DNA from: Acinetobacter phage vB_AbaM_ME3 | Direction: 5' to 3' (one strand) | DNA: 64,000 nt | Sequence record: KU935715.1 | Shown: in pieces, positions 3,527 through 51,819 of the stretch | Layout: every line of letters begins with the position of its first letter | How positions within the stretch are numbered: the first letter of the stretch is position 1 | Notes under the pieces: model-generated | The model's input: the letters and a program-made list of their open reading frames with translations, nothing else | The model's database searches: none | Told to the model about the DNA's origin: nothing | Made by a program: the position numbers and the translations under genes

Positions 3527-3547
3527 AACAAAAAATGCTAATAACCC

Positions 3548-3880
3548 CTAAAGATTATTAGCAATAAAAGATTCTAATGCAGCTACTCTATTTTCAAGAG
3601 CAGATACATAAGTAGTAAGAGTAGATAGATGTGAATAAACACCATTGAAATTACTATCAATATAAAGCTTTTGAGCTTTAGATACAGGCTTATCAATATC
3701 ACTAGTGTTATTTAATCTATCTAAATTTAAATTAACTTTAATGTCTTTCAATACCCAAGCTTTTAGTGTATCAGTACGAACGTTTCCAATACCAACATTA
3801 CCTAAAGGGATTGCTTCTATTCCTGTTAAATTAAATATTTCTCTTGTGTTTAAAATATAGTCATTTGTATATGGAAGCAT
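3548..3880 (-). CDS. small protein carrying a phage tail-fibre repeat (NNTSDIDKPVSKAQ)
   Basis: 110 aa; paralogous motif to 2689..2982 and to fibre N-termini. Confidence 0.5.
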   Translation of the reverse strand: MLPYTNDYILNTREIFNLTGIEAIPLGNVGIGNVRTDTLKAWVLKDIKVNLNLDRLNNTSDIDKPVSKAQKLYIDSNFNGVYSHLSTLTTYVSALENRVAALESFIANNL

Positions 3881-3890
3881 AATTAAACTC

Positions 3891-4442: not shown

Positions 4443-4447
4443 TATTT

Positions 4448-4993: not shown

Positions 4994-4995
4994 AA

Positions 4996-11700: not shown

Positions 11701-14700
11701 TCTGAGCAGATTTAATTGTAGCATTAGCAATAAGAACACTATCAATATAAGTACCAGCAGGAACAGGTGTTCCATTAATAGTACCTGGAGAAGTTAAAAC
11801 AATGAATGGTTTTTTATTAGATGTTGGAGAACCAATGTAGAATTGATTTGCCTCAACAGCAAAAGCTGAAGTAGGTGTTCCATTATTAGCATCTGCAATT
11901 AAACCGTAACCAGCAACCAAACCACCCGCATTAACTTTAACAGCATACTTAGCTAAAATTCCATCAGGGCCACTAATAGCTTCATTCACAACTTGAGTTT
12001 GAGCTTGAAGCTCTGTAGCACTCTTAACAAATGCAGTAGCCACTTCACCTTGCTGTAACATAACATCTGTTACAATGAAGTTAGGAGCATACCCAGTAGG
12101 TGAATAAATAATAATATTAATATGCTTTAAATCTGCAATAGTTGTAAAAGTAAAAGTAAGACGACTTGGACTAGTAGTATTAATCGCTAACGAAGTACTT
12201 AATTGACTATTAGAATTTGCAGAGTTAAGTCGATGAATAATAACATTTACATTCTTATTATTTGCATCTAAAGCTTGAGCATAAAACGAAAGAGTATACT
12301 TAGCATTAGATAATAATAATTCGTTACCAGCACTAGTTATAGTCTGAATAAGCCCTTTAAAAGCTGTAGTTGTATCAGTACTATTAACTAAACACCAAGT
12401 CTTGCCATTCGTATCTTTATAAGCTGAAATAGCTGTACCTGAATTATTTCTCCAACCGTATAAACCATTAGTAGTATTACTAAAATTACCATTAGTAATA
12501 ATATTGTCACTACCAATACTTGCAGAAAGAGTTTTAATCTCTTGAGCAATAGCTCCATCAACTCCAGCTTGAGTAAGATACTTAGAATCAATTTGAGCCA
12601 TAGTAGGCTTAGCGGCATCTAGATTCTTAATGTCTGATTTCCAAGGGGACCATCCAGTAGTACCTACCGAGAATCTAGTATGAGTATTTAAACTATCACC
12701 AGCTGTCCAAACTTGAATGATATAACCGCCACTACTGTCATTCCAAGGAATTGTAGTTTCTAATACACCATAACCTGTAATGCCACCAGGAGAACCTATA
12801 GCAGAACCAGTTTTAAATTCTTGTACTTTACGTCTAGGATAATTAGCCCAATACCAACTTGGAGGTTGGTTAACATCTCTAGTATCTGGTAGTTGTAAAG
12901 CTTGCGCAATGTTAGAAGCAGAAATAGTTTGAGCTCCAGCTGCAATAGCTGTATCTGCGTCAGCTTTAGTATAGTAATTATTCATTACAGTACCAAAAGA
13001 ACCTATCAGAACTTCATTTCTATTTGGAGCATACATTTTATCTACTAATGTACTCAATAACTTAGTAAATCTAAAACCACCAACACTGGCATTATTGTTA
13101 ACGAGCACATCAATAATATTCCAACCAGCAGTTAATGTAAATGTAGTATCTACAGTCTCCATTGCTGAACTTATACTTGATTTAATTAAAATTCCATTTA
13201 CATATAAGCCCCAAGCATCATCACCTTGCATTGGTCCAACATTGATAGTTTTTCCAACAGCTACATATACTCTAGTTCTATAAGCACCAATTTTTCCAGT
13301 TGGAAGCGAAAGAGTTCCATTACCTACCGCTGTAGATTCTGTAACGTATAGAGTTGATTCTATAGAATAAGTATTAATAATACTATAAGTAGGAGCAACT
13401 GCTACATAAGCTTCAGGTCTTACAAAGATAACACATAACCATTTATTAGCTTGAGCAAAATCAGGATTAACTGGAAGACGACCATTATAACCATCTACAG
13501 TAAAAGCAGATCTTAACTGTTCGTATCTAAATGCTTGAGCATCATCTTTAGTAGTTAAAGTATCCATCTGACTTTGATAGTCAGCTAGAGTAGACTTAAT
13601 TGCTGGAGGAACATCATCATAGTCTGTTAAATCATATGCCTCAATAGAAGCTAAATAAATTTCTAAAGGACTATCTGTTGTCGGGCTAGGAGTAGAGCCT
13701 GTTGATTTATTGAAATAAACATGACCAGTAGTACTAAACGTACCAGTTGCGCCACATTCAATTCTTCTAATATAAGTCTCATATCTTCCTGTACCTTTAT
13801 TATTCCCAATAAATACATTTCGAGAGTCATTTCCAATAGCATTAGAAGCTGGCAAAACAGTCCACCCTTCAGGAAACTTCATAATATATTTTACTAGAAA
13901 TACAGCATTAGCTCTTGAGTTAATATTTTGATAAAACCCTGCCCAACCTGGAGAACTCAATGTTGAACTTGAAATTTTCATTTCAAAACCAGATGTAGTA
14001 GGATTATCAGAACTCTTTGCTACTCTAGCAGGAACAGTTCCTGAATAACCATTTACACTATTTGTGCCTACTTTAAATGTAGGATCTGCATATAATAATT
14101 TGCCACTATTAAATGACCTAGCTAAATATCCAGCATCTGATACATCTTTAGTTAAAGTGGTTGTAGTTGATTCTAAGTTAGTTATCTTAGTAGCTTGACT
14201 ACCACTCATACCAACAGCAGTATTAATATTATCTATTGCTGTTGCTGTTGAATCTAATTGACTATCAATATCAATTGCAGCTTTAGACCAATCAGAAGGA
14301 ATATTACCTACTTCATATTGAGCTCTACTTACATAGAATGTACTTGCAGCAGAACCATAAATTCTTACTTGAGGTATACCCGCACTAATTACTTTAGTAG
14401 TGAAGAAGTATCTAGTCCATGTAGTACTTAACGTTGCTTCATATGTACTGATATCGTGATCACCAGGAAGTAATCTAACTTTAACTCCAGCTGTATCTGC
14501 TTTTAACCAAACACTAAATGTTATCTCTGTACCAGCAGGTACATTATAAGGTAACGGTCTAAGTATTCCGTGTAAAGTAGCAGTAGTTATAACTTTAAGA
14601 CATTTAGTTGCAGTGGTTGGAATAGTAGCATCATTAACTATTGTTAATGTAGGAGTACCATTTGATAACCAACCAGTTGTATTCACTTCAAAAGAGGAGT

Positions 14701-17700
14701 TAGGTATTAAGTTTGCACTACCTACTTGTAGTGTACTCTTAAAATCAGAAATCTTACCAGCAGTAGCTTGATCAGCTTGAGTCTTAGTATAATACGCATC
14801 AATAACTGTAGCATCTAATTTAGTTTGAACTTGAGCAACAGTAGCTACAGTATTATCTGTGTCATCAGCTGACAATAAGGCTCTTACATGGAAACCTTGA
14901 ACCTCACCTTTATACCCAGAAACTGTATGGTTAATAAAGAAGCCAGGAGAGAATTGAGGATAAATATCTTTTTGAGAAGTTAAATCAAAAATCATCTCAA
15001 CAAATTGCCAATTACCATCAGCAGTAACAACTCTACTTGCACTCGAATACTGAGATGTAGTTCTAATACCATTAGGTTTAATTAATAACCAGTTAAAGCC
15101 ACAACTACCACCACTACCAACTTCTCTTCTCATCCAAACAGAAAATTTATAAGCTCTATTATTAGGAAGAATAGTTCTAGAATAATTCCAACAGTTAGCT
15201 ACTGTAGTAGGTTTACTAAATACATAAGGACCTACTTTACCATCAGTAATAGTAGTAAAATAGTTTGTTAAATCATAGCCATAGTGAGATTGCCATTCAG
15301 AAACTAATTTCAAATTATAATCAGCTGTTAAAGAATCACTATCACGAACAACCTCAAGTTTAGAACTTAATTTAGTATCAATAGCTGCAATAGCTTCATT
15401 AGTACCAGTCTTCGTATAATAATTATTAAGGACAAGAGCATCTACTCTAGGACCTAAATTATCAACTAAAGATTTAGTATTCATTGCTGGATACATGTTA
15501 GTAACTTGACTTCCTAGGGAAGTAGCTACAGATACATTTTCATCTCCAGTACCTTCATTAACAAGTAAGTCAATACAATGCCAACCAGCACTTAAAGCAA
15601 AGGTAACAGCAGTACCACCAGAAGATCTAGGAACACTATCATAGACTTTAGTGTTATCTACATACATAGCAACAGAACAGTTATTAGTCATTGCACCTAA
15701 ATTGATAGTCTTAGCAGATGTAACATTTACAAATGTTCTATATGCAATAAAGACATTATCATGAGTACTTGAAACTAAACTTGTACTACTTCCAACATAA
15801 TTAGAAGTAATAACTGTATTCGCAATTAAATGTTTATATTCAGGAATTACAGTTTCAGCTTCACCACCACGTTTAGTATAAACAACTTTCAACCATTTAT
15901 TAGGTTCTTTATCATCATATTCAGTAGGTAATGTTAATTGAGGATAAACAGAACTTTCTACTGTTGTAATACGTTGATTAATAGCTGTATCTGCATTAGT
16001 TGTAGAAGTTGCTAATGTAGTAATTTTTCCATCTAAACTTCTATCAGCATCTGCAAATTCAGTACGAACATTAGTAAAGCTTTGAGCAGTTGCTAATTTA
16101 TCTGAAGCATAAGTACTTTGGAAAGTAGTTAAATCAGCTGAAGTTTTGTTAAGAACTTTAACTATAGCTGGAGTAGATTTATCAAACGAAGTAGCTCTAT
16201 TACCAAGTTGTAATTGAACTTGTTTAACTTCATACCAATCACCAGCAGCAAATGCTCCAGAAGGAACAGAAATAGCAAATAATTGATTAGTAGATCCAGT
16301 AGCACCTAAATTAGCTACAGTTAATGTTCCAGTGACAAATTGCCAATTAGGAGTAACTGTAAATAATCTATTAGCTATAGTGGCTCCATATGAATATGCA
16401 TACCAACCTAATTGTTTAGTTACATTAGATCTAACCCAGAATGAAACGGTTAATGAATCACCTATAGCAGGTTTAGCATCCGCTACTAAACAACTATGGA
16501 AATAAACTCGTGCTAACCCATTAGTCGCATTTGCACTTACAAACGTTCCTCTATAATATTCTTGATCTCTATCGATCCAAGAAATTGTAGTGTTACCCCA
16601 TTCTTGAGCTGCAACACCATTGCTTTCTAGTGACCAAAGATTTTGACCACCAATCGTCATATTCTCAAACGACGATTTTACAGTATTTAAGGTGTTAGCT
16701 TGAGTATCGAATGCAGTAGTGTTTGCAGATTGATAAGATTCAACTTTTGAATCAATAGCTCTAATTGTATTTACAAAACTAGAATCAAATGGAGTAGGTC
16801 TTGAGCCTTTCTCAATTTTAACATTTCTGATTTCATAAGTACCAACTAATCCAGCAAATCCAAAATGAATACTTGGAGTTGTATAATTAGCTGCAAAATC
16901 ACGAACATGATAAACTCTTCTCCACTTTCCAGCCTCTAGAGTTTCCCCTGTAAGAGGTGTAGTGGCAAGATAACCCATTTGAGTACCCCAGTAGACACTA
17001 GGACTACCAATAGTACCACCAGAAGTAATACGTATATCAAAAGATACACATACTTTATTTCCAGTAGTACATAACTCAAATAATCTAGGTAACTTAGTCA
17101 TATCCATAGTACCACTAACGTAGTTCGCAGCAGCATTAGTAGAGACAACTGTTAAAATAGTTTTATCTGAATTAATAGAAGATGTTAATCCTGCTTCTGC
17201 TGTTCCAGCTGCAAAGAATTTTCCTGGATCATCATAAAGATTATCACCACCTAAAATCATACTATTAAAGGAAGTTGTTAATTGACTTAAACTTTGAGCA
17301 GTTGCACTATTTGCATCTGTTGAAGTTTGTTGAGCTTGTGCAATCTTAGCATCAGTAGCTGTGACATTAGCTGCAAACATTGCATCAATGTCGTAAGGAC
17401 TCTGACTCCAATCTGTAGGCTTAACATTCAATTCTCCATCAAATAATACAGCCCAATGAACGGTAGCTGTAGTTGCAGCATCAGTTCCACTAGGAAATAG
17501 ATAGAAAGAGATATTACTACCAGCACCAGCTGATGTACGAGTAAACGTAATCATTCTGATTTGCTTGGTAGCATTAATTACTTGATTTGCAGCAACAGTC
17601 GATAAACCCTGACTGCCATTAACCCATGCTCCAACATATGAAGTTGTATCAGCACCACCTCTTAAATGAGAAGCACAGAATACTAAAGTATATTTTTCTC

Positions 17701-20700
17701 CAACAGTTAAAGCACCACCACCAATATTATAAGATCCGAAACCATAAGTAGTCCCAGCTCTAACAAGGGCGACATTAGAGGCTATTAATCTATTTTTACC
17801 ATTACTAGTTAGATTACTAAATTGAGTATTAATATTACTGAATTTAGTAGCAGTTGAAGAATCTAAATTAGTAACAACATCAGTTAAATCTTGAATCTTA
17901 CCTAAAGCGACAGTATGGTTATTAGTAGCTAATGTCTTAGCATCAGTAGCTACAGTTAAAGTAGCGGCATTTGCATCACTAGCAGCTTTACTAACAGTAT
18001 TAATCTTAGCATCAGTGGTAATAAACTGTTTACTAATTGATGTATCACTTGCCCAAGGACTTGGATTATTATTATCACCTATTCTAACTTCCAACATCAT
18101 TTGCTCTAAATAAATAATAGCACCTGATAACCCAGTAGGGTTAGAAATTAATAAAGGACAATACGTACCATCAGCCGTAATTTCTACAACTTGACTAAAA
18201 CGTTTTAACGACGTATTAAGAACATGTCTTACACGAGGAGAAGCCACTGTACCATAGATATTAAAATCAATTGGCATACTAGCTAAATTAGATTTAGCAT
18301 AGAAACTAAAGATATAAAAACCTTTAGTTAAGAATAAATTTCTAGTTGTGTAAGCTCCAGCTTCGTTAAAATAGACACCACTACCAACTGAAGTAGTCGG
18401 AGATAAGGTATATCTATTTACTGTTGGATTTTCATAACTAGGTTCAACAACAAAGGTAGTCCCTGAAGTCCAAGGAGGATTAGGAACACCAATAGGAGCA
18501 GATATACTTAAAGGTAATAAATTAACACCACCATTAGGCATAGTAGAAAACTTAGTATCAATAGTTCCAAATTTAGTTGCTGTTGAACTACTTAAATCTG
18601 ATACAGTTGAAGTTAATGTTGCAATAGATGAGTTAGATGCAGCAACATCACCTTTTAATTCAGTTCTGTAACTTTCTAAACGATCTGCTACAGCTTTAGT
18701 TGCATTTGCGGCTACAGTTTTAGCATCATTAATCTGAGCTTGAGAATTGATATAATCTTGCTTTGTATCCTGATAAGCAGGAGTCCAAACAGAACGCTTA
18801 GTTCCCAATTCAATTTGTACGTTACTAATTTTAACAATAGAAGTAAAATTATTACCATTAGCTTTAACAGTAATATTATAAGGACCAACTGTTGAAGAAG
18901 TAGAACAAATAAATGCAAAGTCAGCTACTTTGTTTACAGCATAAGGAAACCCTGCTAAACCATCTTTAACATTATCAACATACATTTCCTCTACTATAAT
19001 TCCATTATTAACTCCAATACTAACATCATTTAAAGTACCAGATTCAACTTTAACTTTAAAAGAGATAACAAATTTAGTATTAATTGGAAGAACAGTATTA
19101 ACAAAAGTATTAATAACTCCTGATGCGTTACTTGAACTCTTAAAGGAGTAAGCATACTCTTCAGGAATAGGAGTAAATAATGAAGGACTTCCAACACCTA
19201 AAGCATCTTTAAAGATCCATAAGTTAGGAGATGACATTAAGTTGTCTCTCTTAAACCCAGCCTTTAAAGTATTAATATCTGTAGATGTTGTTCCAGCTAA
19301 ATTAGTAATAGATTCTTGAAGATCAATAATTGCTCCAGATACCTCTGTATCTAAATCAGATACAGTTGTCTCTAGTGTGTTTAATCTAGAAGCTGATGAA
19401 GCAGCACTAGAAGAAGTAGCATCTAACTGAGATCCAAGACGAGCTTGTGATGCGCTAACAGGTAATAAACTATAAGGAGATAATGATTGACCTTCAGCCC
19501 ACTTAGAAGGGTTAGGATTTGTTCCATACTGTTGTTCTAACATCATACGTTCAATGAACATAGGACGACTAACTGTAGATCCAGCTGCATTTACAACAAA
19601 ACGAACAGTATATTTACCAGCAGTAGTAACATCAAAAACTTTAGAATATCTTGTAAGAGACGTAGCTAAAGTAATGGCTGTATTATCTAAAGCATTTACA
19701 ATATTACTTGCGTCTCTCATTAAATTTACAGAAATGCTTTGATTCGTAATAGACGAATATGCATAAAAACTAAGAATATATTTCCCAGGGTTTAAATCTG
19801 TAAATTCAGCTACAAAAGTGCTAGGAGAAGTGGCTAAAACAACATTAGCTGCTTGGTTAGGATCATACCTAATACCTTTTAGTCCTGTAACGATTGTACT
19901 GTCATATAAAGCAATAGTGTCTGTACTACCTGAAGGATAGAAATTACTTACATCTACAGGATTAGTAACTTTACTACTTAGTAAATTAATTCCAGAGTTA
20001 GGAACTGTAGTGAATTGAGTAGTAAGTCCAGAAATTTGATTAGCACTAGCTGTATCACCATCAGTAATTGCTTTAGTTAAATTAACAACAGTTGCGTCGA
20101 TCTTACTGTTTAATACCTTAGGCATTTCTTTATAGTCAGACCAATCAGTCGGCTTATTACCTAATTCAATCTTCCATCGACTAATGATTAAACCACCATT
20201 AATAGAGTCAGTATGAAACTGAATATTAGGTACAATATCAGTTGTTAAAGGAGTAGTTAAATTAATAACTTTATAGTATTGACACCAACCACCAGAAGAT
20301 AAATTTCCAATAACTCTATCAAAGTCTACATAATTGTAATTAGAAGCTAAGAATAATCTTGGTTTTCCTGTAGGTACTTTAGTAGTATCAACAGCTTTAG
20401 CCCAAAAACTAAATACAATAGAAATACCAGTAGTGTTTCTAAAATTATCAGTAGTAACTTTTAAATCAGTATCAGCACTCCAATAATTAGTTATATACGT
20501 ATAACCTAAAGTAGTAGCTGGATCTTGAATAGTAAGCTTTAAATACCCTTCAGGGGTAATTTCTCTTAATAACCTAGAATTACCTACAGTACCAACACGA
20601 AACTTATCTGTATAAGCTGCTAAATTAGCACTACCAATAGTAAAATTGTCAAATGTACTTTGTAATGTATTTAGTTGACTAACTGCATTACCTACAGCAG

Positions 20701-23700
20701 TTGTTCTATTAGTAGTTTCAGTAGCAATTAATCCTCTAACAGCAACATCATTATTTTCAATCGTTGTAGTAATAGATGTTAATTGAGAACCAAAAGCTTC
20801 ATCAGCATTAGCTCTAGCAGTAGCTTCATTAGTTACAGCAGCATTAACTTGATTAATAGCTTTTGTTGTTATCCAACTAGGTTTAGTATACGCTGAAGTA
20901 ACTGTTCCTTGTTGTAACTGAACATTACGAATTTCAAGTGTTTTACCAACTAAATCAGTAGCAGCTACATTGTTATCAGATGCTACATATCTAATACCTA
21001 ATAAACCATCATAAGAATCTGAAGGAGTTCCAGTATTTGTATTTATAAGATTGTTAAGTCTTACAGTAGTCCATTTATTAACTTCTACAGTTTGTAGAAA
21101 ATTAGCAATCGGATTTGCTTGTCCATAGATGTAAACAAAAACTCTAATCTTAGAGTATGCAGATTTAATTTCAAAAGAAACAGAATGTGGCTGTTCTAAA
21201 TTAATTTTAGACGGAAATTCAGTACTTTTTAAATTTCGCCATAAATTGCTAAAGATTCCACTAGATTGAGCAGTAATCGTTAATTTCTGATGTTGTAAAT
21301 CAGAAGTCATCATTTCTTTAGTAGCAGTACCGTAATCAGAACTACCTGAATTACTAAACCACCATAAATTATCTGTCCCTACTACATTACTTCCAAAAGA
21401 AGCTTGTAAAGAATTAACTTGATCAACTACAGTATCAATAGCTGTAGTTCTAGCTGTTCTCTCGTCTACAATTAAACCTTTTACTGCTACATCATTATCA
21501 TTGACTTTAGTAGTAAGAGCTTGAAATTGACTAGCAAAAGATGCCTCACTTGTTGTAATAGCTTTATTGATTTCAATAATAGAAGCTTCTAAATTACCAT
21601 TACTAGAGACCCAATCAGATGGAGCTGTACCAGTGCCTATTTGTTTTTCCACCATAATCATATCAACTAAGATATAATTATTGTCAGAGACAGCTTGATT
21701 ACCAGTATCACAATAAATTAAAAGATATCCACCTTCAGCTGGTACAGTATTAGGTACTGTAAGAACTGAAGAATATCTTACTTGGGTAGTCGTTAAAGCT
21801 ATTTCAGGACCGTTAATATACAAACCTGAGGATGCTCTAAAAGCAAATTTAAATTTAGTTCCAGCGATTCCTGCTTTAACATAAGCAGATACAATATAAC
21901 TGGTATTAGGTTTTAGTCTTAAATTATCATAAGTAGTTATAGTTTTAGCAAAAGCTAAATAACTGTTAGCTCCAGTCCCAGTCTTTTTAATCTTCCATTG
22001 TTTAGCAACAGAAGGATCTCTTAATGTACTAGGTTCTATTGTAGGAGTAACTGCATTAATTGTAATACTCTTAAGTCCTACAGGATCACTATATTCAGCA
22101 GCTAATAGGTTAACACCACTTCCACTAAAAGAACTCTGTAATAAACTTACAGACTGAGCTAAGGACTGGTCTGCATTGGATCTAGTTGTAGCCTCATTAC
22201 TAACTAAAGAAGACGTAATGCCTTTCTCTGTTTCAAAATCAGATCTTAACACTTCTAATAGTTGAGCATTACTTTCAATATCATTTGATAAAGCTTCTTT
22301 TTCAACTTGAATAATAGATCTAGTTTCAGTATCTAATGTTGTAAATTCAGTTCGAACTTGATCAATCTCTTGAGCTCTAGCCTGAGTCTCATCAGCAATA
22401 GCAGTCTGCAATGAAGAAATATTAGCATTACTGATAACTTCTCTATCTAATACATCGAAAGGAGATTCGATCCAATCAGTTGTCGCTATAGCATCTCCTC
22501 TCACTAACATCGCCCAATGTACAGTAGCTGTACCTGAAGTTGTAGCTTGAGGATAATAATAAAAATTAATTGTTGAAAAATTATTAGTTGTAGGAGTAAA
22601 AGTAGTCTTAAATACCTTCCTTACACTTCCTTTAGTAGTTGTACTAAAAGGAATAGCTACAGATGAACCTTGCCAACCTCTAATCTCAGCAGGAGCTGAA
22701 GGCTCAGAAGAAACATCATGAGTAATACATGCAATTAATGTATATTTCTCATTAATTACTATTGGCTCTCCAATAGTATATCCACCAATTAAATAAGTTC
22801 CAGCAGTACGAACTAGAGCTACATTTGACTTTTTAAGAAGGTTCTTACCAGCTGTATTTAAATTAGTAAAACTTGCATCTAATGTATTTAGTCGAGTAGT
22901 AATTGTTCCAACTTGAGAAGTTCTAATATCTCTTTCTTCAGCAATTAATCCTCTAACTTGAGTATCATTTGATGTAACAGTTGCACTAAGAGCTTCAACA
23001 GTACTAGCTGTAGCAGCACTTTGAGTTGCAGTAGCATCAGCTTTTTCAATAACACTAGCTAAATTAGTTTGCATAGTGCTTGAATCAGTTTCTAATGTAT
23101 CAACACGAGCATCCAGTGCTGTCATTGTAGAAGAATTGGCAATGCCATCTTCAATACGAGTAGTAATTTCTTCTCTTACGTTTGCAAGTGCTGCATCATT
23201 ACTTGTTTTATAATTAGTTATATTTTGAAGTAATTGATCATCACCAGAGATACGAGCAGTTGCTTCGTTAGTAATACCATTTTCTAACTCTGCAATTTTT
23301 CCTAATCTATCAATTTGTTCTAATGTAATGTCTCCAATAAGATCATTAACATTATTCATAACAGTTGTATTATTAGAATTTATTTGACTATTAACATAAT
23401 CAATCATCTCTTGAGTGACAGTTCCAGCATCAATACGGGCATTAAGGTCGTCAATCTTTTGAGATAAGATATTAATATCTTCAATAGCTAAATTATCAAT
23501 TTTAGCATTCAACTGTGTTACAGCAGTTCCTACTTTACTATCAATAGCAGCATTACGATCAATTACTTCCTGATTAAGATCAGCAATTAATTGATCAGTT
23601 TTACTTGTAATAACCCCTTCAATTCTAATAAACTCTGAATTGTAATAAGCTGCCTTAGCATCTACATCAGCTTGAACAGAGTCAATTAAAGTATTAGCAG

Positions 23701-37405: not shown

Positions 37406-38090
37406 TTAGTTCCCTATGGTACCCATAAGCATTAGAAATAAGTTGACAATTGTCTACAGTGATATGTGTATTATAATGAGTATGAGACCAGAACCAATAA
37501 TTAAACCCATCTAGGTTTAAATCATTAGTAAAGTATCCTGAATGTTTAGGATCTTTTAAATATGCGGGGTGACTACAGAGGGGAGAAGGAGGAAAGTGTG
37601 TAACGACTACAACATTGTCTTGATGACGATATTGATTGATATAATTATATTGTTTATTAAATAAAGTAATATAATCTTCAGGAGTTATAGTTTTCCCTTC
37701 ATTAGCTATGAAACGGAAATCAGGGAATCTACGGAAGGAGTCTTTTACAACATCTACTTCCCAATCTTCTAGTACATTACTTCTAAAATTAGTAAATAAC
37801 GTACCACCAACAAATGTAACACCTTTATAAATAAAAGGCTTATCTTCTTTTAAATAATTAATACCATGATCATCTAGTCGTTTGTAAACTAAACTGATAT
37901 CTTGATACCAGAGATCATGGTTTCCAGGAATAATAAGAACTTCTTTGTCTAAACTCTTACATAAGTTAACAAATACAATTAACTCTTCCATCCCATCACT
38001 AGCATCTCCACCATGAATAATTAAATCAGCTTCAGGATTAATATGATAGTACATACAATCATGAGTATCTGACATAAATTGAATTTTCAT
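37344..38090 (-). CDS. calcineurin-like metallophosphoesterase (Ser/Thr phosphatase family)
   Basis: 248 aa; IHGGDASDG, IIPGNHDLW, VVTHFPP motifs. Confidence 0.7.
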   Translation of the reverse strand: MKIQFMSDTHDCMYYHINPEADLIIHGGDASDGMEELIVFVNLCKSLDKEVLIIPGNHDLWYQDISLVYKRLDDHGINYLKEDKPFIYKGVTFVGGTLFTNFRSNVLEDWEVDVVKDSFRRFPDFRFIANEGKTITPEDYITLFNKQYNYINQYRHQDNVVVVTHFPPSPLCSHPAYLKDPKHSGYFTNDLNLDGFNYWFWSHTHYNTHITVDNCQLISNAYGYHRELIGDEAYKPNLLIEVYPNADK

Positions 38091-39739
38091 TAGAAAGGTA
38101 TATCTCTTGGATAAGGAGCAATATCATAATGGCTAGTTGTTAATTGTTTTAAAGACAACCACTCTTTAGTAACTTCTAAAAGTTCTTCATTAGATCTTAA
38201 AGGATGGTTATAAGCAAGTTTAGCTTGAATAACATCATTGCCTTTAGTAACTTCAATACAAGCTATAGGTTCATTAGATGTTTTATCATATACGCCTACG
38301 ATTGAAATCTCACCTGATACAGCTTTAGTATCATAAACAGCTACACAGATATGAAGTTTAGTTCCAAGATCTAATAACATTTGTGTATGCGTTGCAGGAA
38401 CAAATGAATAGTTTTCTGTCTCGTAAGCTAAAGCAAGTCTATCTTCTGTAAGAGGAATTTCTCTTAAATAATTAGCATCTCTAATGTTACGTTGCAATTG
38501 AGATAAACCATCATGTATTTCAGGAATAGATCTTTTTGGATTCATTACTTCTAAAAGAAGATGCTGTTGATCTTCTCTAAGAAGACTTGTTACTCTAAAA
38601 TAAAGAGAACTGATATCATTAAATATATAAGATCGCTTAAAATTAACAATCTTTTTTAGACTATATCCATATGATAGAAGAATCTGAATAACATCTACAC
38701 AACGAATGTCTATATTATGATTTGTTAATAATAATTCTAAATTATTGGGATCAAACAAGGAATCAATCTTTGCTTTCTTAAGTAAATGAAAAGCTTTAAT
38801 TCGATTATAATCTTGACTTAAGAATCGTTGTATTTGTTTATTAGAGGATCCAATAAATTTTTCTCTTAAAGCTCTAGTACCATATTTATCATAATGATAT
38901 TTAAGAGTAGAGTATTTAATATGAAGACTTTTAACAGGATTACCATTACCAATAACGACATTTAAATCCATCCAGAGAGGATTTCGTAAAGCTCTCATTC
39001 CAGGTCTAAACCCAGATTTTCTTAAAATAGGATAATTATATCTTACATTATTCTCTTCTAAAACATCTAAGAACGTATGGTATAGAGTAGTATCATGTCT
39101 AATTTCATTAGGTACTGCAAATAACTTAATATTATTTCTAGAAATTTTAATATTCCCATCTTCGAAGAAATAGAATAAATGGTAAGATTTACTCTTATTC
39201 GTTCTAATACCTATAGATCCAGTTTTCTTATTTAACCAACATTTCTCTAAAAACCTACTAACTCTAATATAGGTATCAGTTACTTTAACTTTATAATTAA
39301 AATAACTAGAGAAACACTTAACTATAGTTTTATACCGTTGACTTTCTATTACAGGTTGTCTTTCTTCAAGTTTATTAATACCATAACCAGTACTATTAGT
39401 TGTCATTGTAAACCGTTCAGTTATATCAGCAACAACATTAGATATAGAAGTTGAAACACCTATTTCACCATGACTATAACCAAGTAAGAGAAGCAAGTCA
39501 GTTTTTAAAATAGGCACAACATGAGAAGGAATTCCAGTTCTAGTAAATGGATTATGTTTCTCTGAATATTCAGCAAGTACAGAAATCCAATACTTTTCTG
39601 GTATATCTTCTAACAACTTTCTAGAATTAGAAGATAACAAATGTTTTGTATAAGGCTCGATTGGTCGTGCTTTTTCATAACCCTTTAAGGCAGCACGATT
39701 ATGATCTAATTTATTAGGCACTTGAAAGAGTCTACTCAT
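38090..39739 (-). CDS. large hypothetical protein downstream of the E1-like/small-protein pair
   Basis: 549 aa; no JAB HxH or UBC HPN motif seen by eye. Confidence 0.5.
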   Translation of the reverse strand: MSRLFQVPNKLDHNRAALKGYEKARPIEPYTKHLLSSNSRKLLEDIPEKYWISVLAEYSEKHNPFTRTGIPSHVVPILKTDLLLLLGYSHGEIGVSTSISNVVADITERFTMTTNSTGYGINKLEERQPVIESQRYKTIVKCFSSYFNYKVKVTDTYIRVSRFLEKCWLNKKTGSIGIRTNKSKSYHLFYFFEDGNIKISRNNIKLFAVPNEIRHDTTLYHTFLDVLEENNVRYNYPILRKSGFRPGMRALRNPLWMDLNVVIGNGNPVKSLHIKYSTLKYHYDKYGTRALREKFIGSSNKQIQRFLSQDYNRIKAFHLLKKAKIDSLFDPNNLELLLTNHNIDIRCVDVIQILLSYGYSLKKIVNFKRSYIFNDISSLYFRVTSLLREDQQHLLLEVMNPKRSIPEIHDGLSQLQRNIRDANYLREIPLTEDRLALAYETENYSFVPATHTQMLLDLGTKLHICVAVYDTKAVSGEISIVGVYDKTSNEPIACIEVTKGNDVIQAKLAYNHPLRSNEELLEVTKEWLSLKQLTTSHYDIAPYPRDIPF

Positions 39740-39745
39740 TAATGA

Positions 39746-39964
39746 TTACCCTAATACAATTATTTTAGTTAATCCTTCTTCATCTGGAATTTCTTTTATA
39801 GTTAAAATAGAACTAGACTTAGAAGGAAAGTCATCTTTATAAAAACCAATACCTAATTGAGATATTGGTTCTACTGTATCACTTTCAGTAACAAAACATA
39901 CTTCTGCTTGAGGAGTATGCTTTTTAATTTTATTTAATTGACGAATTAAATCACTTACATTCAT
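39746..39964 (-). CDS. 72-aa protein ending ...KIIVLG-stop; candidate ubiquitin-like/ThiS-like carrier
   Basis: Start ATG overlaps E1-like stop (TAATG); C-terminal Gly; small size. Confidence 0.45.
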   Translation of the reverse strand: MNVSDLIRQLNKIKKHTPQAEVCFVTESDTVEPISQLGIGFYKDDFPSKSSSILTIKEIPDEEGLTKIIVLG

Positions 39965-41046
39965 TACTTAACCAAGTTACTAATATGAGCAGCTTTACTT
40001 AATTCAAATAATTTCTGATGACTTTCACAGATATCATCAGGGAACTCACTACGAGATAAATCCCCAGCGAATAATACAGAAGCATGAGTTGGAAGTTCCT
40101 TCTCAATACTAACATTAATACCACAAGTAAATTTAATTTTACGATGAGTAATACAGTCAGCAATAGAAGTTTGATATAAGTTAGCTAAAATAGAAGCTGC
40201 CATATCATTACCATTAAACATTTGTTCTGGATTGTCAGCAGTACCTTCTGCATCAGCATCAGCACAAGAATGTACTTTTACTTCTTCCACATCATCAATA
40301 AACGATGGGTGATCCAAGGTATATAAATTTGTAAACACTGGATAAGATACATAACATTGACCGTTAAATAAGTTGATTCCTGCATTGAAATAAATCAAAC
40401 AAGTTTTCTTATAAATAACATAATCAATTTTACGTTTAAATACTTCATTATCTACAAGATTTACAATGATATCAGAAGATTGAATATAGTCATCAATATT
40501 AAAGAAAACATCCTGATCAAGAGGTTGCTCTAACTTAGATACTTTTTGATCATACTCTACAGAAGTACCATATAAAGGAATAGATACTACAGAGATACGA
40601 GGATAAAGATTATTATAACGTTCAGCAAGTACGTCAGATTTTTTCTGACCTACATCTTCATTAATGAAGTTTTGACGAATAATGTTTTTAGTTTCAACCT
40701 CATCATGATCCATGATAACAATTTCAAGATCATAAGCTTGTTCAGGACATTTAGTAAAAGCATCGTTATAAATCTTTAAAAGCTTAGGTAAGAACCAACT
40801 AGCAGTTCCTCCAGCTCCGAACATAACGACACGTGATTTACGATTTAATACATCCTTTAAAAGGTTTTTAGATACAGCTGAACGTAATTGAATCATTTCA
40901 ACAAAACCAACTGAAGCTGTTGCATCAGCTTGTAATTTGGTTTCGTCTTCATAACGATATTTAGTACGAATATCTAAGCTGTCATACCAGTTAAGAACAT
41001 TTTGATTGATTGACATTTGTTGTCTCGATAGTTGTATTGTCTTCAC
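39964..41046 (-). CDS. E1-like (ThiF/MoeB/HesA superfamily) adenylyltransferase
   Basis: 360 aa; nucleotide-binding RVVMFGAGGTASW (GxGGxxS) and IVIMDHDEVETKNIIRQNF matching the E1 D.D.VE.SNL.RQ motif; candidate Cys in VHSCADADAEG. Confidence 0.75.
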   Translation of the reverse strand: MKTIQLSRQQMSINQNVLNWYDSLDIRTKYRYEDETKLQADATASVGFVEMIQLRSAVSKNLLKDVLNRKSRVVMFGAGGTASWFLPKLLKIYNDAFTKCPEQAYDLEIVIMDHDEVETKNIIRQNFINEDVGQKKSDVLAERYNNLYPRISVVSIPLYGTSVEYDQKVSKLEQPLDQDVFFNIDDYIQSSDIIVNLVDNEVFKRKIDYVIYKKTCLIYFNAGINLFNGQCYVSYPVFTNLYTLDHPSFIDDVEEVKVHSCADADAEGTADNPEQMFNGNDMAASILANLYQTSIADCITHRKIKFTCGINVSIEKELPTHASVLFAGDLSRSEFPDDICESHQKLFELSKAAHISNLVK

Positions 41047-41641
41047 TTAATTTGACAATAGTTTTTGCAAATTCATCAGCGACTAGACGTTCTAGTTTTT
41101 CTGATAACTCATACATTTCTGGAACTTCTGCTCCTGACTCGTCTGCATATTTAATTACACAAGCAATAGCTTTGTCTACAAACTCAAGAGCAAGAGATTC
41201 TGAATACTTAACACCATAACGTACTTTATTGATTAAACCATAAATATCGTTAAATGGATTTTTTACTGAATAAAAGTTCGAAGAGTTGCTAGTAGTTGTT
41301 TTAGCTTTATTATTGGGATGTACCTTCCAGCCTTGAGCACTATAGTAGTCCTCATAATCACCTTCAGTCCAACCTGCATACCCACCAGTAGTTCCTGTTT
41401 TACCTGCACCATACATACCTGTGTACATAGGAGCAAACTCAGTGATATTAGCATAATCACTTTCTGGAACAGTGTAATCACTAGTAGCTGTAACACCTAG
41501 TTCATTTGAAAAAATATCTTCGATCTTAAGTTTAATTTCTTTACCATTAGATGCTGCCCGTACAACCATTTCAGGGAGTTCATTGTCAATTTTACCAATT
41601 ACCCCAAAGTAACGAGTTGCCGTTTCATCTTTAAGATCCAT
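40991..41641 (-). CDS. hypothetical protein with Gly/Thr-rich middle segment
   Basis: 216 aa; 3' end overlaps E1-like start by 56 nt. Confidence 0.45.
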   Translation of the reverse strand: MDLKDETATRYFGVIGKIDNELPEMVVRAASNGKEIKLKIEDIFSNELGVTATSDYTVPESDYANITEFAPMYTGMYGAGKTGTTGGYAGWTEGDYEDYYSAQGWKVHPNNKAKTTTSNSSNFYSVKNPFNDIYGLINKVRYGVKYSESLALEFVDKAIACVIKYADESGAEVPEMYELSEKLERLVADEFAKTIVKLSEDNTTIETTNVNQSKCS

Positions 41642-41788
41642 TATCTTTTAAGTAGTTCGTTAGACTACTTAGAGTAATCATTAATATTAACCTTATTATA
41701 ATAAATTTCAGTATAACCTCCAAAAATATTACCATTAAAATCTACTGATTTGTTAGATTTTTTAATATTTTGTTCGATTAAAAATAAA

Positions 41789-42232
41789 TCAGGCAATAAT
41801 CCGTTCAATAGTATCTCTTAAGTTTATTTCAACATCAGGATAAAATTTTCTCATTTCTTGTCTTAATTTATATAATCGTCTTTTTGGATTAATACTTAAA
41901 CCATATTTATAATAAATACTATTATTAATTTTTATTTCAAATTCGTATAAAAAGATAGTTTCTAAAGGTCTACGTTGAACTGTAGTTTTATTTAAAAATC
42001 CACTTTGGTTATTTCTAGAGCATGTAGGACAATTACTTCTAGATTGTAAATAGTCATTAGTGCGTGGTGTCCATGTGTTAGAACATTTTTTGCATTCTAA
42101 TTTTATAAATTTAGCATACTCTTGATAACTTCTAGTTAATAAAATGTATAAATCATCTTGGATAACTTTAGAAAGAATTGTAGAATATTTTAATAAATTA
42201 TAAAAATTAGATTTTTGAACTAATGCGTACAT
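41789..42232 (-). CDS. zinc-ribbon + GIY-YIG-like endonuclease segment (homing-endonuclease-like), possibly 3' half of a frameshifted gene
   Basis: CKKCSN...CPTC zinc ribbon; FLYEFEI...YYKYGLSINPKRRLYKLRQE resembles GIY...YIG...R...E. Confidence 0.45.
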   Translation of the reverse strand: MYALVQKSNFYNLLKYSTILSKVIQDDLYILLTRSYQEYAKFIKLECKKCSNTWTPRTNDYLQSRSNCPTCSRNNQSGFLNKTTVQRRPLETIFLYEFEIKINNSIYYKYGLSINPKRRLYKLRQEMRKFYPDVEINLRDTIERIIA

Positions 42233-42630
42233 GAACTAACTCCCTTAACAAAATCATGAAATAAGGGAAAATAAATATTACCACATGTCTTATGAACTAG
42301 AGCTAATGATATTTTAGTAGTAATTTTAGATAAATCTTGATAGATATATTCATACTCTGAAAAAGTTGTATCAATATAAAGTTTTAAATCCTTTTCTGAT
42401 TTAAAACGTCTTGATTTTTCATTACAAACGCCTGACGTAAGTTTACAATCATTACAGAATTTAGGCTTATTATAAATCAAATTAAACCAATTACTTATAA
42501 CTTCTTTTTGACAAGTATTACAAATTACTAGTATTTTAGATTTGACATTTTTATAAGGTTCTACTTCTCTAATAAATGAAAAACAATTTTCACTTTGAAT
42601 AATCATTTTATATTTTTGAATTTGAAACAA
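42220..42630 (-). CDS. zinc-finger protein, possibly 5' half of the same endonuclease gene
   Basis: 136 aa; CNTC...CNDC; 13-nt overlap with 41789..42232; immediately 3' of group I intron core. Confidence 0.4.
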   Translation of the reverse strand: MFQIQKYKMIIQSENCFSFIREVEPYKNVKSKILVICNTCQKEVISNWFNLIYNKPKFCNDCKLTSGVCNEKSRRFKSEKDLKLYIDTTFSEYEYIYQDLSKITTKISLALVHKTCGNIYFPLFHDFVKGVSSCTH

Positions 42631-42660
42631 ATCTACTCCTCTATATTTCTATAGATGTTG

Positions 42661-42915
42661 AGACTATATCTTCATCCTATTAAATAGGAGTTTTATGTTT
42701 CCCTTTAATCCGTTCGGAACCACTTGGCGGTAGACCTAAATTTAATTTAGGAATTACTAGTCGTTGAACCTTCCTCTATATTACTAGAGGCTTGGCTGCT
42801 GATTGTCCATTACAAAGAATATATTAATATATTCATCTTCTTTATTTTCAAACATTCACGCTCATCTTTACAGATCACGTTGTAGTTAAAGAAGCTTTAG
42901 GAGTTTCCAGCAATT
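42661..42915 (-). ncRNA. group I intron catalytic core (P, Q, P6, R, P8, S elements), IA2-like
   Basis: P AATTGCTGGAAAC (42915-42903), Q AATCAGCAGC (42804-42795), P6 hairpin CCTCTA/TAGAGG, R GTTCAACGACTAGT (42769-42756), S GAAGATATAGTCT (42673-42661); P/Q carry compensatory T/A changes preserving P4. Confidence 0.6.
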
Positions 42916-43383
42916 AATAAAATTTTGTCGACTACATTACTGTAGAAGGTGTCAATCTATTATTTAACACTACTGAAGAAAGCGCTCATATTGACGTGTG
43001 ACACCGTCATAATTGTTAACAAGAGTTTCTTTAATTATCTCTTTTCATTTCCTATCTAAAGTTTGGAAATAGTTCAGACTATCTAATCACCTTCAACAAC
43101 AAATATTTGCTTTGTTAAGGTGTTGGGCGCTCGTGGAGAGGTTATTGTTATCTTACTCACTCTCTAGTCGTTTAACGTTCTTGTCTCTTAATTAAGATAA
43201 GACAAGCTTCGCACAGTGTCGCCTACTAAGCTTCCACTGTTAGCTACAATATATAAATATAATAATGATACAGACTATTGGAATCTAACCAATTCATCCT
43301 AAGTTTACAAAGATGTTTCCCAACATTCTAAGCTCTTGGGGCGTTCACCTTTCACCAAGTCTGCATTACGAATTATCTCGGAT

Positions 43384-43461
43384 TGGTAGGCCTTATGGGA
43401 TTCTAACCCATGATCTCACAAGTTATGAGCTTGGTGCTTTAGAACGCTAAGCTAAAGGCCT
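43384..43461 (-). tRNA. tRNA-like element, anticodon CAT, non-canonical D- and T-loops
   Basis: Acceptor AGGCCTT/AAGGCCT + A + CCA, D-stem GCTT/AAGC, anticodon loop CTCATAA, T-arm ATGGG-TTAGAAT-CCCAT; lacks G18G19 and C56. Confidence 0.35.
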
Positions 43462-43477
43462 GTAATACCGAAAGAAT

Positions 43478-43562
43478 TGGCATCGCCTGGAGGAATCGAA
43501 CCTCTCACGTCCTTCCTGCTTTTTACGTACCAGCTTAGAAGGCTGGTGCAGGGGCAAGCGAC
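43478..43562 (-). tRNA. aberrant tRNA-like element, anticodon TCT, no recognisable D-arm
   Basis: 3' end AGAGG-TTCGATT-CCTCC-AGGCGAT-G-CCA; anticodon stem CCAGC/GCTGG, loop CTTCTAA; 5' acceptor GTCGCTT with two G-U pairs. Confidence 0.3.
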
Positions 43563-43666
43563 ACAGATGATTAATTTCATTTTGTAAATTTATATAAGTA
43601 ACACCCTCTTTTGATCGAGGTTCACCCAATTATTCGATTACCATTTCTGATAAAAGCCACTCACAT

Positions 43667-44101
43667 TTAATGGATATCCATAACTACAACTAAATCTGGA
43701 CTTGAATAAATCTCAGGAGTATTAGTATAGTTAATGGTTGCTGCGCTTACTTCTTGTTTAGGTACATGAATGAAGAAATCTTTTTTAATTTTATCCCAAA
43801 CAATAGCACAATAGACTTCAGATTTAATTGTCTTACTAATATTACGATAAAGAACAATTACTTGTTGTAATAATCCAGTAGGAATTTTTGGAATTTCAGA
43901 ATGATCAGGAGTAAAAGAAGTTTCACATTCTTTTGTCAAACCTAAAGCTTTGAAATCTTTTAATTCAGTAGGGATTACAAATGTACCAATAGGAGACTTA
44001 CGTTGCTGAAAAATACCATTAGCAAAGATTGCATTATGGATATTCTTACCTGATTCTGTATCAAATTTTTCAACAGCAAAAGAGTTAAATAAATCAAACA
44101 T
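43667..44101 (-). CDS. hypothetical protein
   Basis: 144 aa; stop is immediately upstream of the tRNA-like/intron region. Confidence 0.45.
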   Translation of the reverse strand: MFDLFNSFAVEKFDTESGKNIHNAIFANGIFQQRKSPIGTFVIPTELKDFKALGLTKECETSFTPDHSEIPKIPTGLLQQVIVLYRNISKTIKSEVYCAIVWDKIKKDFFIHVPKQEVSAATINYTNTPEIYSSPDLVVVMDIH

Positions 44102-44985
44102 TAGAAGTGTCTCCCAATATTAATAGCACCATCGCCACCATTAGGTTCAAAAATATCATCAAATTTGTAACCTAATACTGAACAGAAATAGTAAAGAGTA
44201 AAGATATTATGATACCAATCATGTTCACGCTCTGTAATAGAACGAATAAAGTAATTGATTGAATCTTCACTTTCTGCTAATACTTCTGTTAAAAATTCTT
44301 TAAAACCTTCACGATTTGAATTAACAAAAGAAGTTTTAACTTGATTACGAATACGTAAATCAGAGTTAAAATTAGAATTTAAGTAAGCATGAATAGTAGA
44401 TACTTGTTTATAACTATCTTTTGCTTTTAATAAATCACGATCAAAACTTCCATGCCAACAAACATTGTGATCAAAGTGATTACACAACATAGAAAGAAGT
44501 TGAGAATCATTACTTGGCATATTAATAATGTTAGTAGTAATAATTCCGTAGTTATGAGTTACATTACTAAATTCTGAATTATTTGTATTAACGATTAAGG
44601 CGCCATAATTTTTTAATTTAAAATTAGGGAAACGTACAAAATGATTTTCATCGCCATCTTCATCTTCTTCAGTAATATGGCAGATTCCGTATTTATTGCC
44701 TTCTTTGATATTTACACTACCACCAAATTGGAAAGTACCTGTAAAGGTTACTTCAGGAATCATGTATAAACGTTTTACTTGTCCATTCGCTACACATTCA
44801 CGAATTAAATAAGGACTAATAAAACCAGTATCAGCTTCTTTTAAACCATTAACAGAAGCTTTAGTAAAGAGTTCAGGAACAGATGCTACAGGAACACGTT
44901 TAATAACAGATTGACGTCGATCATTAGTTACACTAACCCGTGCATGTGGTTGTGAACTGTCTAACGTTACATTAATAATAGTCAT
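44101..44985 (-). CDS. hypothetical protein
   Basis: 294 aa; stop overlaps next start. Confidence 0.5.
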   Translation of the reverse strand: MTIINVTLDSSQPHARVSVTNDRRQSVIKRVPVASVPELFTKASVNGLKEADTGFISPYLIRECVANGQVKRLYMIPEVTFTGTFQFGGSVNIKEGNKYGICHITEEDEDGDENHFVRFPNFKLKNYGALIVNTNNSEFSNVTHNYGIITTNIINMPSNDSQLLSMLCNHFDHNVCWHGSFDRDLLKAKDSYKQVSTIHAYLNSNFNSDLRIRNQVKTSFVNSNREGFKEFLTEVLAESEDSINYFIRSITEREHDWYHNIFTLYYFCSVLGYKFDDIFEPNGGDGAINIGRHF

Positions 44986-51726: not shown

Positions 51727-51819
51727 TGGCGGAAAAGGAGGAAGTCGAATCCTCAAGGCACTTATTCAGTACTCGACGCATTTCAAGTGCGCTGCCATCG
51801 CCAGTTGGCTTGCTTTTCC
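51727..51819 (-). tRNA. tRNA-Ser(TGA), type II with long variable arm, CCA encoded
   Basis: GGAAAAG acceptor pairs CTTTTCC; 3-bp D-stem with GG in loop; anticodon stem GCGCA/TGCGT, loop CTTGAAA; T-arm GAGGA-TTCGACT-TCCTC; G discriminator + CCA. Confidence 0.65.

Follow-up and report, generated by a model that had tools for sequence, protein, structure and literature searches.

A putative JAB-protease gene of Acinetobacter phage vB_AbaM_ME3 probably interrupted by two group I introns, one of them carrying a tRNA cassette

Which gene is interrupted by the group I intron core of Acinetobacter phage vB_AbaM_ME3, and what lies in the sequence upstream of that core? The 64,000-nt stretch analyzed here (sequence record KU935715.1), referred to in the following as the window, has such a core on its minus strand, next to open reading frames (ORFs) with zinc ribbons. 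A preliminary description, made from the sequence alone, had offered as the interrupted gene a tRNA, a degraded gene or the flanking ORFs of 144 and 216 amino acids, and had regarded the 5' side of the core as a GC-richer non-coding stretch. Our analysis indicates that the locus is very probably a gene for a JAB protein interrupted twice by self-splicing group I introns, the first of which (intron 1) carries a tRNA cassette and the second (intron 2) a dead endonuclease gene. The coordinates of the features are collected in Table 1.

A JAB/MPN+ gene in three exons

In a Pfam scan, neither the 144-aa ORF (43667–44101) nor the 216-aa ORF (40991–41641) gave a match on its own. The host-gene search was made with the two ORFs concatenated as a single query, which retrieved proteins of ≈370 residues covering the whole query; one of these, P0001 (371 residues), was 88% identical. 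The Prok-JAB family (PF14464) is precomputed on the homologues P0003 and P0006–P0011. The flanking ORFs had thus been rightly suspected as the host gene, which is neither a tRNA nor a degraded gene. A tRNA as host was ruled out because the surroundings of the splice sites are not tRNA-like and the protein junctions account for both introns. All relatives used for comparison were obtained from Logan/ENA assemblies via a protein index and lie on contigs of 130–250 kb; IMG/VR, searched with the protein and with DNA patterns taken from the cassette and from the core of intron 1, gave no close relatives.

P0001 reads ...VVVMDIH-SHVNMSAFFSSV-DLKDETATRYFG..., while the 144-aa ORF ends in ...MDIH and the 216-aa ORF starts with M-DLKDE. 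The 12 residues SHVNMSAFFSSV are absent between both ORFs, and the window encodes exactly these residues on the minus strand at 43001–42966. There are therefore two introns rather than one of ≈2 kb, and the JAB gene is predicted to be cut in three by group I introns only 36 nt apart. Joining 44101–43670, 43001–42966 and 41638–40991 yields a 1116-nt ORF of 371 codons, which aligns without gaps to the uninterrupted gene of a relative (contig L001, 1695–2810) at 87% nucleotide identity. The apparent TAA stop codon of exon 1 (43669–43667) is the first three bases of intron 1, and the ATG in front of exon 3 (41641–41639) is the end of intron 2.

The joined product has a Pfam Prok-JAB match at residues 124–173 that spans both junctions, with a score of 23.2 bits (cut-off 25) and an E-value of 7e-5. 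Each of the three exons contributes to the catalytic motif H-S-H-x7-S-x-x-D (HSHVNMSAFFSSVD), which is formed only after splicing. Between the spliced window gene and the intron-less L001 allele, the ratio of nonsynonymous to synonymous substitution rates (dN/dS) was 0.12 overall and 0.014 in exon 1, and we therefore consider the split gene to be under purifying selection. The predicted ligated junctions are GAUAUCCAU joined to UCACAC between exons 1 and 2, and GUAGUGUU joined to GAUCUU between exons 2 and 3, so spliced RNA should contain GGAUAUCCAU followed by UCACACGUC, and UUCAGUAGUGUU followed by GAUCUUAAAG. The full-length protein would have a mass of ≈42 kDa and include the junction-spanning peptide ...MDIHSHVNMSAFFSSVDLK....

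Two group I introns around a micro-exon

The core recognized previously belongs to intron 2. In Rfam, the Intron_gpI model (RF00028) matched 42639–42975 (minus strand) along its whole length (positions 1–253) at 81 bits, with an E-value of 5e-19 and a gathering score of 50, in agreement with the functional-looking core that had been described. The four conserved strings P (AATTGCTGGAAAC, 42915–42903), Q (AATCAGCAGC, 42804–42795), R (GTTCAACGACTAGT, 42769–42756) and S (GAAGATATAGTCT, 42673–42661) lie exactly where they had been placed, as does the P6 hairpin (42790–42773), and the hairpin with a GAAA loop at 42655–42639 is P9. The covariation proposed for P4 is also real: the Rfam alignment has UGCUGG/UCAGCA against a consensus of UGCGGg/uCCGCA, a double change from G-C to U-A.

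For both introns, the guide sequence and the U·G pair of the 5' splice site, which the preliminary description had suggested looking for, are present at the protein-defined junctions. At intron 2, the 5' junction reads GUGUU followed by AAAUAA..UUGACAC; the exon end GUGUU pairs with the guide GACAC to form P1, including the conserved U·G pair that is also marked in the Rfam consensus. AGAUU, immediately 5' of the P1 strand, pairs with GAUCU of exon 3 to form P10, the intron ending in ...GAUAAUG before GAUCUU. Taken together, these pairings join the guide AGAUUGACAC (42958–42949) to an unbroken run of 10 bases in the ligated exons. L003 has a homologous intron in this position (76 bits), with the guide UAAAUU...GACACC and with GAUUUA at the start of exon 3, so that P10 covaries with a synonymous exon change. 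The hairpin preceding the 3' splice site is likewise kept by compensatory change, reading AAGUAGU/ACUACUU (41670–41650) in the window and UAGCUAA/UUAGCUA in L003. By blastn against GenBank phages, the intron 2 core was similar to introns of AR9/PBS1 (Bacillus), Staphylococcus and Listeria phages; this search matched only the generic intron core and no related genome. Intron 2 is thus a new member of a familiar phage IA-type class with an ORF 3' of the core, the arrangement for which T4 sunY/nrdD had been cited.

The two overlapping zinc-ribbon ORFs noted in this position exist, and a third (41665–41808) belongs to the same broken gene. L003 has an intact ORF of 282 aa (7141–7989) after P9 of its intron 2. 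When this ORF was compared with the window by tblastn, three collinear high-scoring segment pairs appeared in frames +2, +1 and +2, with 49–53% identity. The window ORFs are therefore one gene with two frameshifts, and joining them takes two corrections, not the single one that had been suggested. The endonuclease matches phrog_681 'endonuclease' (E 2e-19) and the Pfam treble-clef zinc-finger family DUF4379. The GIY-YIG, T5orf172 and MUG113 profiles gave no match at E<=0.1 to the window ORFs or the intact L003 ORF, which matched only zinc-finger families. A PDB sequence search gave no match, tblastn of the intact endonuclease against GenBank phages found nothing, and the AlphaFold model, with a pLDDT of 45, was too poor for use. 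An exhaustive HMMER search retrieved remote homologues that aligned over the C-terminal domain (positions ≈110–270); three of them (P0131, P0093 and P0137) score above the T5orf172 cut-off of Pfam, with P0131 matching MUG113 as well. Both families belong to the GIY-YIG clan. By homology that is purely transitive, the data support a putative enzyme with treble-clef zinc fingers and a C-terminal T5orf172-type domain of the GIY-YIG superfamily. The earlier term 'GIY-YIG-like' is thus apt in a broad sense, through homologues that match T5orf172 and MUG113, but there is no direct match to a Pfam nuclease family. Presumably intron 2 was once moved by its endonuclease and is now immobile; since the endonuclease is dead, the intron would persist as a splicing-competent passenger.

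The 'GC-richer non-coding stretch' upstream turned out to be intron 1 together with its tRNA cassette. A permissive Rfam scan of 41500–43800 gave a second Intron_gpI match at 43052–43271 (minus strand), with 29.2 bits (E 6e-5) and thus under the gathering score of 50. The second R/S-like pair noted there is real and lies inside this match, but its positions are shifted by 1–3 nt (Table 1). The 5' splice site reads CCAU followed by UAAAUGUGAGUGG, and the guide, GUGA plus GUGG, forms eight contiguous pairs with the ligated exon ends CCAU and UCAC, with a U·G pair at the splice site. Homologues of intron 1 that lack the tRNAs occupy the same site in L003 (6358–6669) and L005 (6405–6716) and scored 44–45 bits (44.9 for L005; E 8e-10) in a local scan.

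These two sequences were aligned with the window intron, its cassette replaced by a tetraloop, as input to RNAalifold. The consensus contains P1, P2, P3, two further hairpins, P4, P5, P6, P7.1, P8 and P9. Thirteen pairs are doubly changed, including four of the six pairs of P2, and the exon-guide pair of P1 covaries (CCAU/GUGG versus GCAU/GUGC); P7 (GACUA/UAGUC) is present and invariant. Minimum free energy (MFE) folding of the full intron keeps P2, P3, P4–P6, P8 and P9. Rfam's own P3 for the window intron (GGCG/CGCC, with P4–P5 skipped) was rejected in favor of UUGGGUG/CGCCCAA with P4 as ACAGUG/CACUGU, as Rfam has it in L005 and as RNAalifold predicts.

The JAB introns are polymorphic among the relatives. 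L001 and L002 have none. Intron 1 alone is found in L006, L007 and L008; in L007, exon 2 is joined directly to exon 3, and this contig is 98% identical to the window over 684 nt, yet without intron 2. L003 has both introns and the same micro-exon, and in L005 (6405–8003) the 36 nt are interrupted by three group I introns, so that two micro-exons of 18 nt remain (SHVNMS and AFFSGV). In the third intron of L005, also designated its intron 2, an unrelated HNH-type ORF inside P6 replaces the zinc-finger/T5orf172 ORF after P9. This presence/absence polymorphism points to mobility.

The preliminary description had allowed for a single intron of ≈2 kb, in which the upstream R/S-like pair and the tRNAs would be debris in the 5' part. 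Such an intron would fit the observation that only one match reaches the Rfam gathering score, and the flanking ORFs are indeed the host gene. However, the 12 middle residues of the homologues are encoded exactly between the two elements, a guide and U·G pair are found at 42966 and not only at 43670, and the upstream element has its own P1–P9 with covariation. Furthermore, L007 and L008 carry intron 1 alone, and L003 shares the micro-exon. We consider a single intron scarcely credible; the locus has two, of 668 and 1327 nt, with a 36-nt micro-exon between them. A twin-ribozyme intron (GIR1, GIR2 and an endonuclease) was also considered: Rfam scans gave no GIR1 match, and a coding micro-exon separates the two ribozymes, each of which is found by itself in relatives.

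Another possibility is that the gene works without RNA splicing, its pieces being made as individual polypeptides that then come together ('genes in pieces'); this is the case for some genes of T4-like phages into which an endonuclease has inserted. The in-frame TAA after exon 1 and the ATG before exon 3 do lead gene callers to report two ORFs, and the split ThiF genes of relatives described below are likewise called as two ORFs. On the other hand, the 12-residue middle piece holds catalytic residues and lacks its own ribosome-binding context, the cut falls within the metal-binding motif, and both TAA and ATG lie inside sequences that fit group I splice-site rules, with guides that pair with both exon ends. 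Unspliced expression is therefore very improbable. Under the splicing model that we prefer, each intron would be removed by guanosine-initiated two-step transesterification, restoring the 371-codon JAB ORF.

tRNA genes as intron cargo

The tRNA-like elements noticed upstream of the core are real and consist of a canonical tRNA(CAU) plus two non-canonical units, together forming a cassette of 329 nt with 42% G+C, versus 31% for the window. The cassette lies at the tip of a peripheral hairpin in intron 1, in a terminal loop whose closing stem of 9 bp is formed by UAUAUAAAU (43596–43588) with AUUUAUAUA (43258–43250); L003 and L005 have a 17-nt hairpin (GAAUACAAAUUGUAUUU) at this position. MFE folding of the full intron shows three cloverleaf-like domains within the loop of the closing stem and leaves the predicted core undisturbed. 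The cassette would thus be accommodated as an independent domain, in the way that endonuclease ORFs are, and because it folds independently behind its stem, it should not prevent folding of the ribozyme.

The first unit (43563–43478) matches the Rfam tRNA-Sec model at 43563–43481 with 30 bits, under the gathering score of that model, and was not called by ARAGORN. Its Rfam-matched core is identical in L002 although the adjoining sequence has diverged, and L001 has a canonical tRNA-Arg(UCU) in its place. AGA makes up 62% of the Arg codons in the long ORFs of the window. The tRNA(CAU) is an elongator tRNA-Met or a tRNA-Ile2; it is not an initiator, since it has A1-U72. Between it and its L002 orthologue, the anticodon stem and the T stem show compensatory changes, an argument that the tRNA structure is under selection. 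The third unit (43365–43267), called as tRNA-Leu(UAG) by ARAGORN, had no match to Rfam tRNA models. It has an oversized anticodon loop of 9–12 nt, which is conserved in L002, and it has lost the CCA in the window (UCA, with one C gone). It is 95% identical to L002 9535–9635, and its acceptor stem is kept by compensatory changes.

In a scan for sigma-70 promoters, the number of sites did not exceed that in shuffled sequence, and the minus strand had no site upstream of the cassette. Release of the tRNA would fall to host RNase P and 3' processing, acting on the excised intron or on the precursor, and in relatives whole arrays might be released in this way. The closing stem and P3 could hold the ribozyme halves together even after cleavage in the loop. 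The window has one further tRNA, a free-standing tRNA-Ser(UGA) at 51727–51819 (minus strand) that is overlapped by the start of a 169-aa ORF call; there was no sign of a split gene or intron around it.

The same cargo was found in an intron of a neighboring gene in relatives. The JAB gene lies in a conserved block (38090–44985, minus strand) that comprises a 294-aa ORF, JAB, a ThiF/E1-like gene, a 72-aa ORF and a PcfJ-like 549-aa ORF. The block, which has the same order in L002, L009 and L013 and is an intron hotspot, looks like a phage ubiquitin-like activation/deconjugation module. The ThiF/E1-like gene is uninterrupted in the window (39964–41046). In L001 and L002, it is split after ...VIMDHDEV, and the 708-nt insertion in L002 holds the same cassette at 87–95% identity to that of the window, placed after P9.1. 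A U precedes the insertion, its last base is a G, and its guide AGUUUGGACCUC pairs with the ends of both exons. Over its first ≈280 nt, the insertion is homologous to those found at this codon in L003, L005, L006, L009, L013 and L014.

The Rfam model RF00028 detected no group I core in the ThiF introns, even at E<=10. The structure was therefore drawn by hand (P1, P1a, P3–P9, P9.1 and the P3/P7 pseudoknot) and its pairs were counted on an alignment of six sequences. In this alignment, 92.5% of cells are paired, compared to 34–44% when the partners are slid. Doubly changed pairs make up 34 of 67, versus 3–10 in the slid controls, a number reached by none of 500 shuffles; they include four of seven pairs in P1, six of seven in P3 and three of six in P7. 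Covariation thus gives strong support to this structure, and the ThiF insertions are a group I intron family that the Rfam model misses.

The cargo after P9.1 differs between relatives (Table 1), from a LAGLIDADG ORF to a single tRNA-Asn and, in L014–L018, twelve tRNA genes in an intron of 2.5 kb, all above the Rfam gathering score. The L014 array (3483–6003) comprises tRNAs for Arg, Pro, Tyr, Asn, Thr, Gln, Ile, Lys, Met, Ser, Glu and Asp, all on the strand of the gene, and the flanking ThiF fragment of L014–L018 is present on 24 contigs, one of 249 kb. Many database 'ThiF' proteins start with M-ETKN..., precisely at the 3' splice site of the ThiF intron. The N-terminus of P0199 (L009 1618–2553), ..SSIAQLVEQRTVNPCVGGSSPPWG.., comes from translation of a tRNA-Asn gene and is fused to the product of ThiF exon 2, an annotation artefact that arose because the intron was not recognized. 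On balance, we lean towards the broader interpretation that, in this jumbo phage lineage, group I introns carry from 1 to 12 tRNA genes in the endonuclease slot, that the cargo moved between the ThiF intron and JAB intron 1, and that the tRNAs are matured from intron RNA, although we hold this with much less confidence than the two-intron structure of the JAB gene.

The main rival to a functional split gene is that JAB is dead in this phage: the cassette or some other decay would have disabled intron 1, leaving a graveyard of mobile elements with an independently expressed tRNA. The twice-frameshifted endonuclease of intron 2 and the two aberrant units in the cassette are consistent with such decay, as are the score of just 29 bits for intron 1 in the window and the failure to find a second example of the cassette in JAB intron 1. 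However, the three exons are intact and in frame, with the low dN/dS values against the intron-less allele given above; all helices of intron 1 are kept, several of them by compensatory change; and the 9-bp stem encloses the cassette, with the predicted core undisturbed. In relatives, moreover, far larger tRNA cargos (2.5 kb) reside in the intron of an intact, conserved ThiF gene (24 contigs). We thus disfavor a dead gene and consider it unlikely.

Several points do weigh against a functional gene split by two introns, one of them with tRNA cargo. Intron 1 is below the Rfam gathering score both in the window and in its homologues; it has two extra hairpins between the 5' strand of P3 and P4, which is atypical for group I introns; and its P3 is invariant among the few available sequences, so that covariation lends it no support. 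The Rfam group I model is blind to the ThiF-gene intron. Of the three units in the cassette, two depart from the canonical form (one lacks the D arm; the other has an oversized anticodon loop and has lost its CCA), so the cassette may be decaying in this phage, and no sequence other than the window was found to hold it in a JAB intron. A cut by RNase P in the unspliced intron would part exon 1 from exon 2 and could compete with splicing. Finally, splicing, the maturation and use of the tRNAs, and the order of both processes are all predicted from sequence.

Elsewhere, the window encodes tail-fibre, Dda-like helicase, PhoH, thymidylate synthase and DHH genes, as in a large phage, and the nearest isolates matched at ≈35% protein identity (Xanthomonas phage X1, 200 kb). 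A single ORF of 5419 aa at 8783–25042 is followed by one of 1186 aa at 4996–8556, both on the minus strand; the latter matches phrog_5499, a profile of length 5292 named 'host range and adsorption protein'. Both ORFs are giant tail/adsorption proteins.

Table 1. Features of the JAB locus in the window and of the ThiF introns in relatives
Feature	Coordinates	Strand	Details
JAB exon 1	43670..44101	-	144 codons; ends ...VVVMDIH; last base U43670; uninterrupted homologues P0001-P0003 continue SHVNMS...
Group I intron 1	43002..43669	-	terminal G43002; 3' end GACGGUG
Intron 1 guide, P1/P10	43664-43657	-	GUGAGUGG; P1 from RNAalifold
Intron 1 P2	43653-43638	-	GAAA loop; RNAalifold and MFE
Intron 1 P3	43629-43623 / 43129-43123	-	UUGGGUG / CGCCCAA; RNAalifold
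Intron 1 P4	43240-43235 / 43218-43213	-	RNAalifold
Intron 1 R-like string	43176-43163	-	inside weak Rfam match
Intron 1 S-like string	43088-43076	-	inside weak Rfam match
tRNA cassette	43259..43587	-	
Aberrant tRNA-like unit	43478..43563	-	8-bp acceptor stem; no D arm; 6-bp anticodon stem; loop CUUCUAA (UCU, Arg-type); 4-bp T stem; encoded CCA
Canonical tRNA(CAU)	43384..43461	-	encoded CCA; Rfam tRNA 59.9 bits at 43387-43461 (gathering score 29); ARAGORN
Type-II tRNA-like unit	43267..43365	-	99 nt; ARAGORN tRNA-Leu(UAG)
JAB exon 2 (micro-exon)	42966..43001	-	encodes SHVNMSAFFSSV: second His, spacer and Ser of the HxHx7SxxD motif
Group I intron 2	41639..42965	-	terminal G41639
Intron 2 core, P3-P9	42965-42639	-	
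Homing-endonuclease pseudogene	41665..42630	-	in intron 2; three frames: ORFs 42630-42220, 42232-41789 and 41808-41665
Intron 2 3'-terminal hairpin	41670-41650	-	
JAB exon 3	40991..41638	-	starts GAUCUU (DL...); supplies Asp of SxxD
ThiF intron, L002	8950-9657		between ...DEV and ETKN...; Arg/CAU/Leu-like cassette after P9.1
ThiF intron, L001	3106-end		same site; Arg/CAU/Leu-like cassette after P9.1
ThiF intron, L003	8981-10281		same site; LAGLIDADG ORF after P9.1
ThiF intron, L013	37-1378		same site; LAGLIDADG ORF after P9.1
ThiF intron, L009	1365-1734		same site; one tRNA-Asn after P9.1
ThiF intron, L010-L012			one tRNA-Asn after P9.1
ThiF intron, L014-L018			twelve tRNA genes after P9.1

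Precedents and consequences

The group I intron in nrdD (sunY) of phage T4 carries the I-TevII ORF. Intron 2 resembles it in having an IA-type core, an endonuclease ORF on the 3' side, a 3' splice site ≈1 kb past P9 and a host gene that is cut at a conserved catalytic region. It differs in its JAB/MPN+ host, its frameshifted ORF of zinc-finger and T5orf172 type, and the second intron 36 nt upstream. Several group I introns in one phage gene reportedly occur also in orf142 of Staphylococcus phage Twort, with three according to work ascribed to Landthaler & Shub 1999. Bastillevirinae phages are similarly reported to have several self-splicing group I introns per gene (PMC11878797). Unlike in these phages, the exons described here are extremely short, with one of 36 nt in the window and two of 18 nt in L005, and one intron holds tRNA genes.

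The nearest precedent for the cargo is the hexacoral mitochondrial ND5-717 group I intron, in which the P8 insertion of corallimorpharians comprises two rRNA genes, one tRNA gene and 12 oxidative phosphorylation genes (PMC6545197). There too, a peripheral loop holds ordinary cellular genes and not a homing endonuclease. However, the hexacoral intron is a fixed and obligatory element of an organelle, carries its cargo in P8 and is removed by back-splicing (PMC6545197), whereas the phage introns are optional and carry only tRNAs, in a P2/P3-side hairpin (JAB intron 1) or after P9.1 (ThiF), alternating with endonuclease genes among strains. A tie between phage tRNA clusters and homing machinery is also known from T4 SegB, a GIY-YIG-family enzyme encoded among free-standing tRNA genes that is reported to promote preferential inheritance of the tRNA region (PMC2330249); the tRNA genes described here differ in lying inside self-splicing introns of protein-coding genes. 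In IStrons, chimeras of a group I intron and an insertion sequence (IS) element, the ribozyme likewise makes a non-endonuclease passenger harmless to the interrupted gene (PMC4227781); here, a tRNA cassette takes the place of the transposase gene, and the insertion shows no sign of ends for transposition. Our searches of the open-access literature turned up no account of tRNA genes within group I introns of phages or bacteria, and tRNA cargo in phage group I introns appears to be previously unreported.

Two to three introns inside a 36-nt catalytic motif, with exons of 18–36 nt, represent an extreme case of endonuclease targeting of conserved sites. The introns of these phages also expose problems in annotation: JAB and ThiF are called as fragments, a tRNA is translated into protein (P0199), and a whole intron family escapes the group I model of Rfam. 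Expression of the tRNAs, if it occurs, would show a way for compact phage genomes to park and mobilize tRNA arrays while their genes stay unbroken, and RNase P/Z processing and ribozyme folding would act on one and the same RNA, where cleavage would give a bipartite, trans-associating ribozyme. If the introns do act as tRNA carriers, the supply of tRNA would be coupled to transcription and splicing of the E1/JAB module, and tRNA arrays could spread between phages by intron homing.

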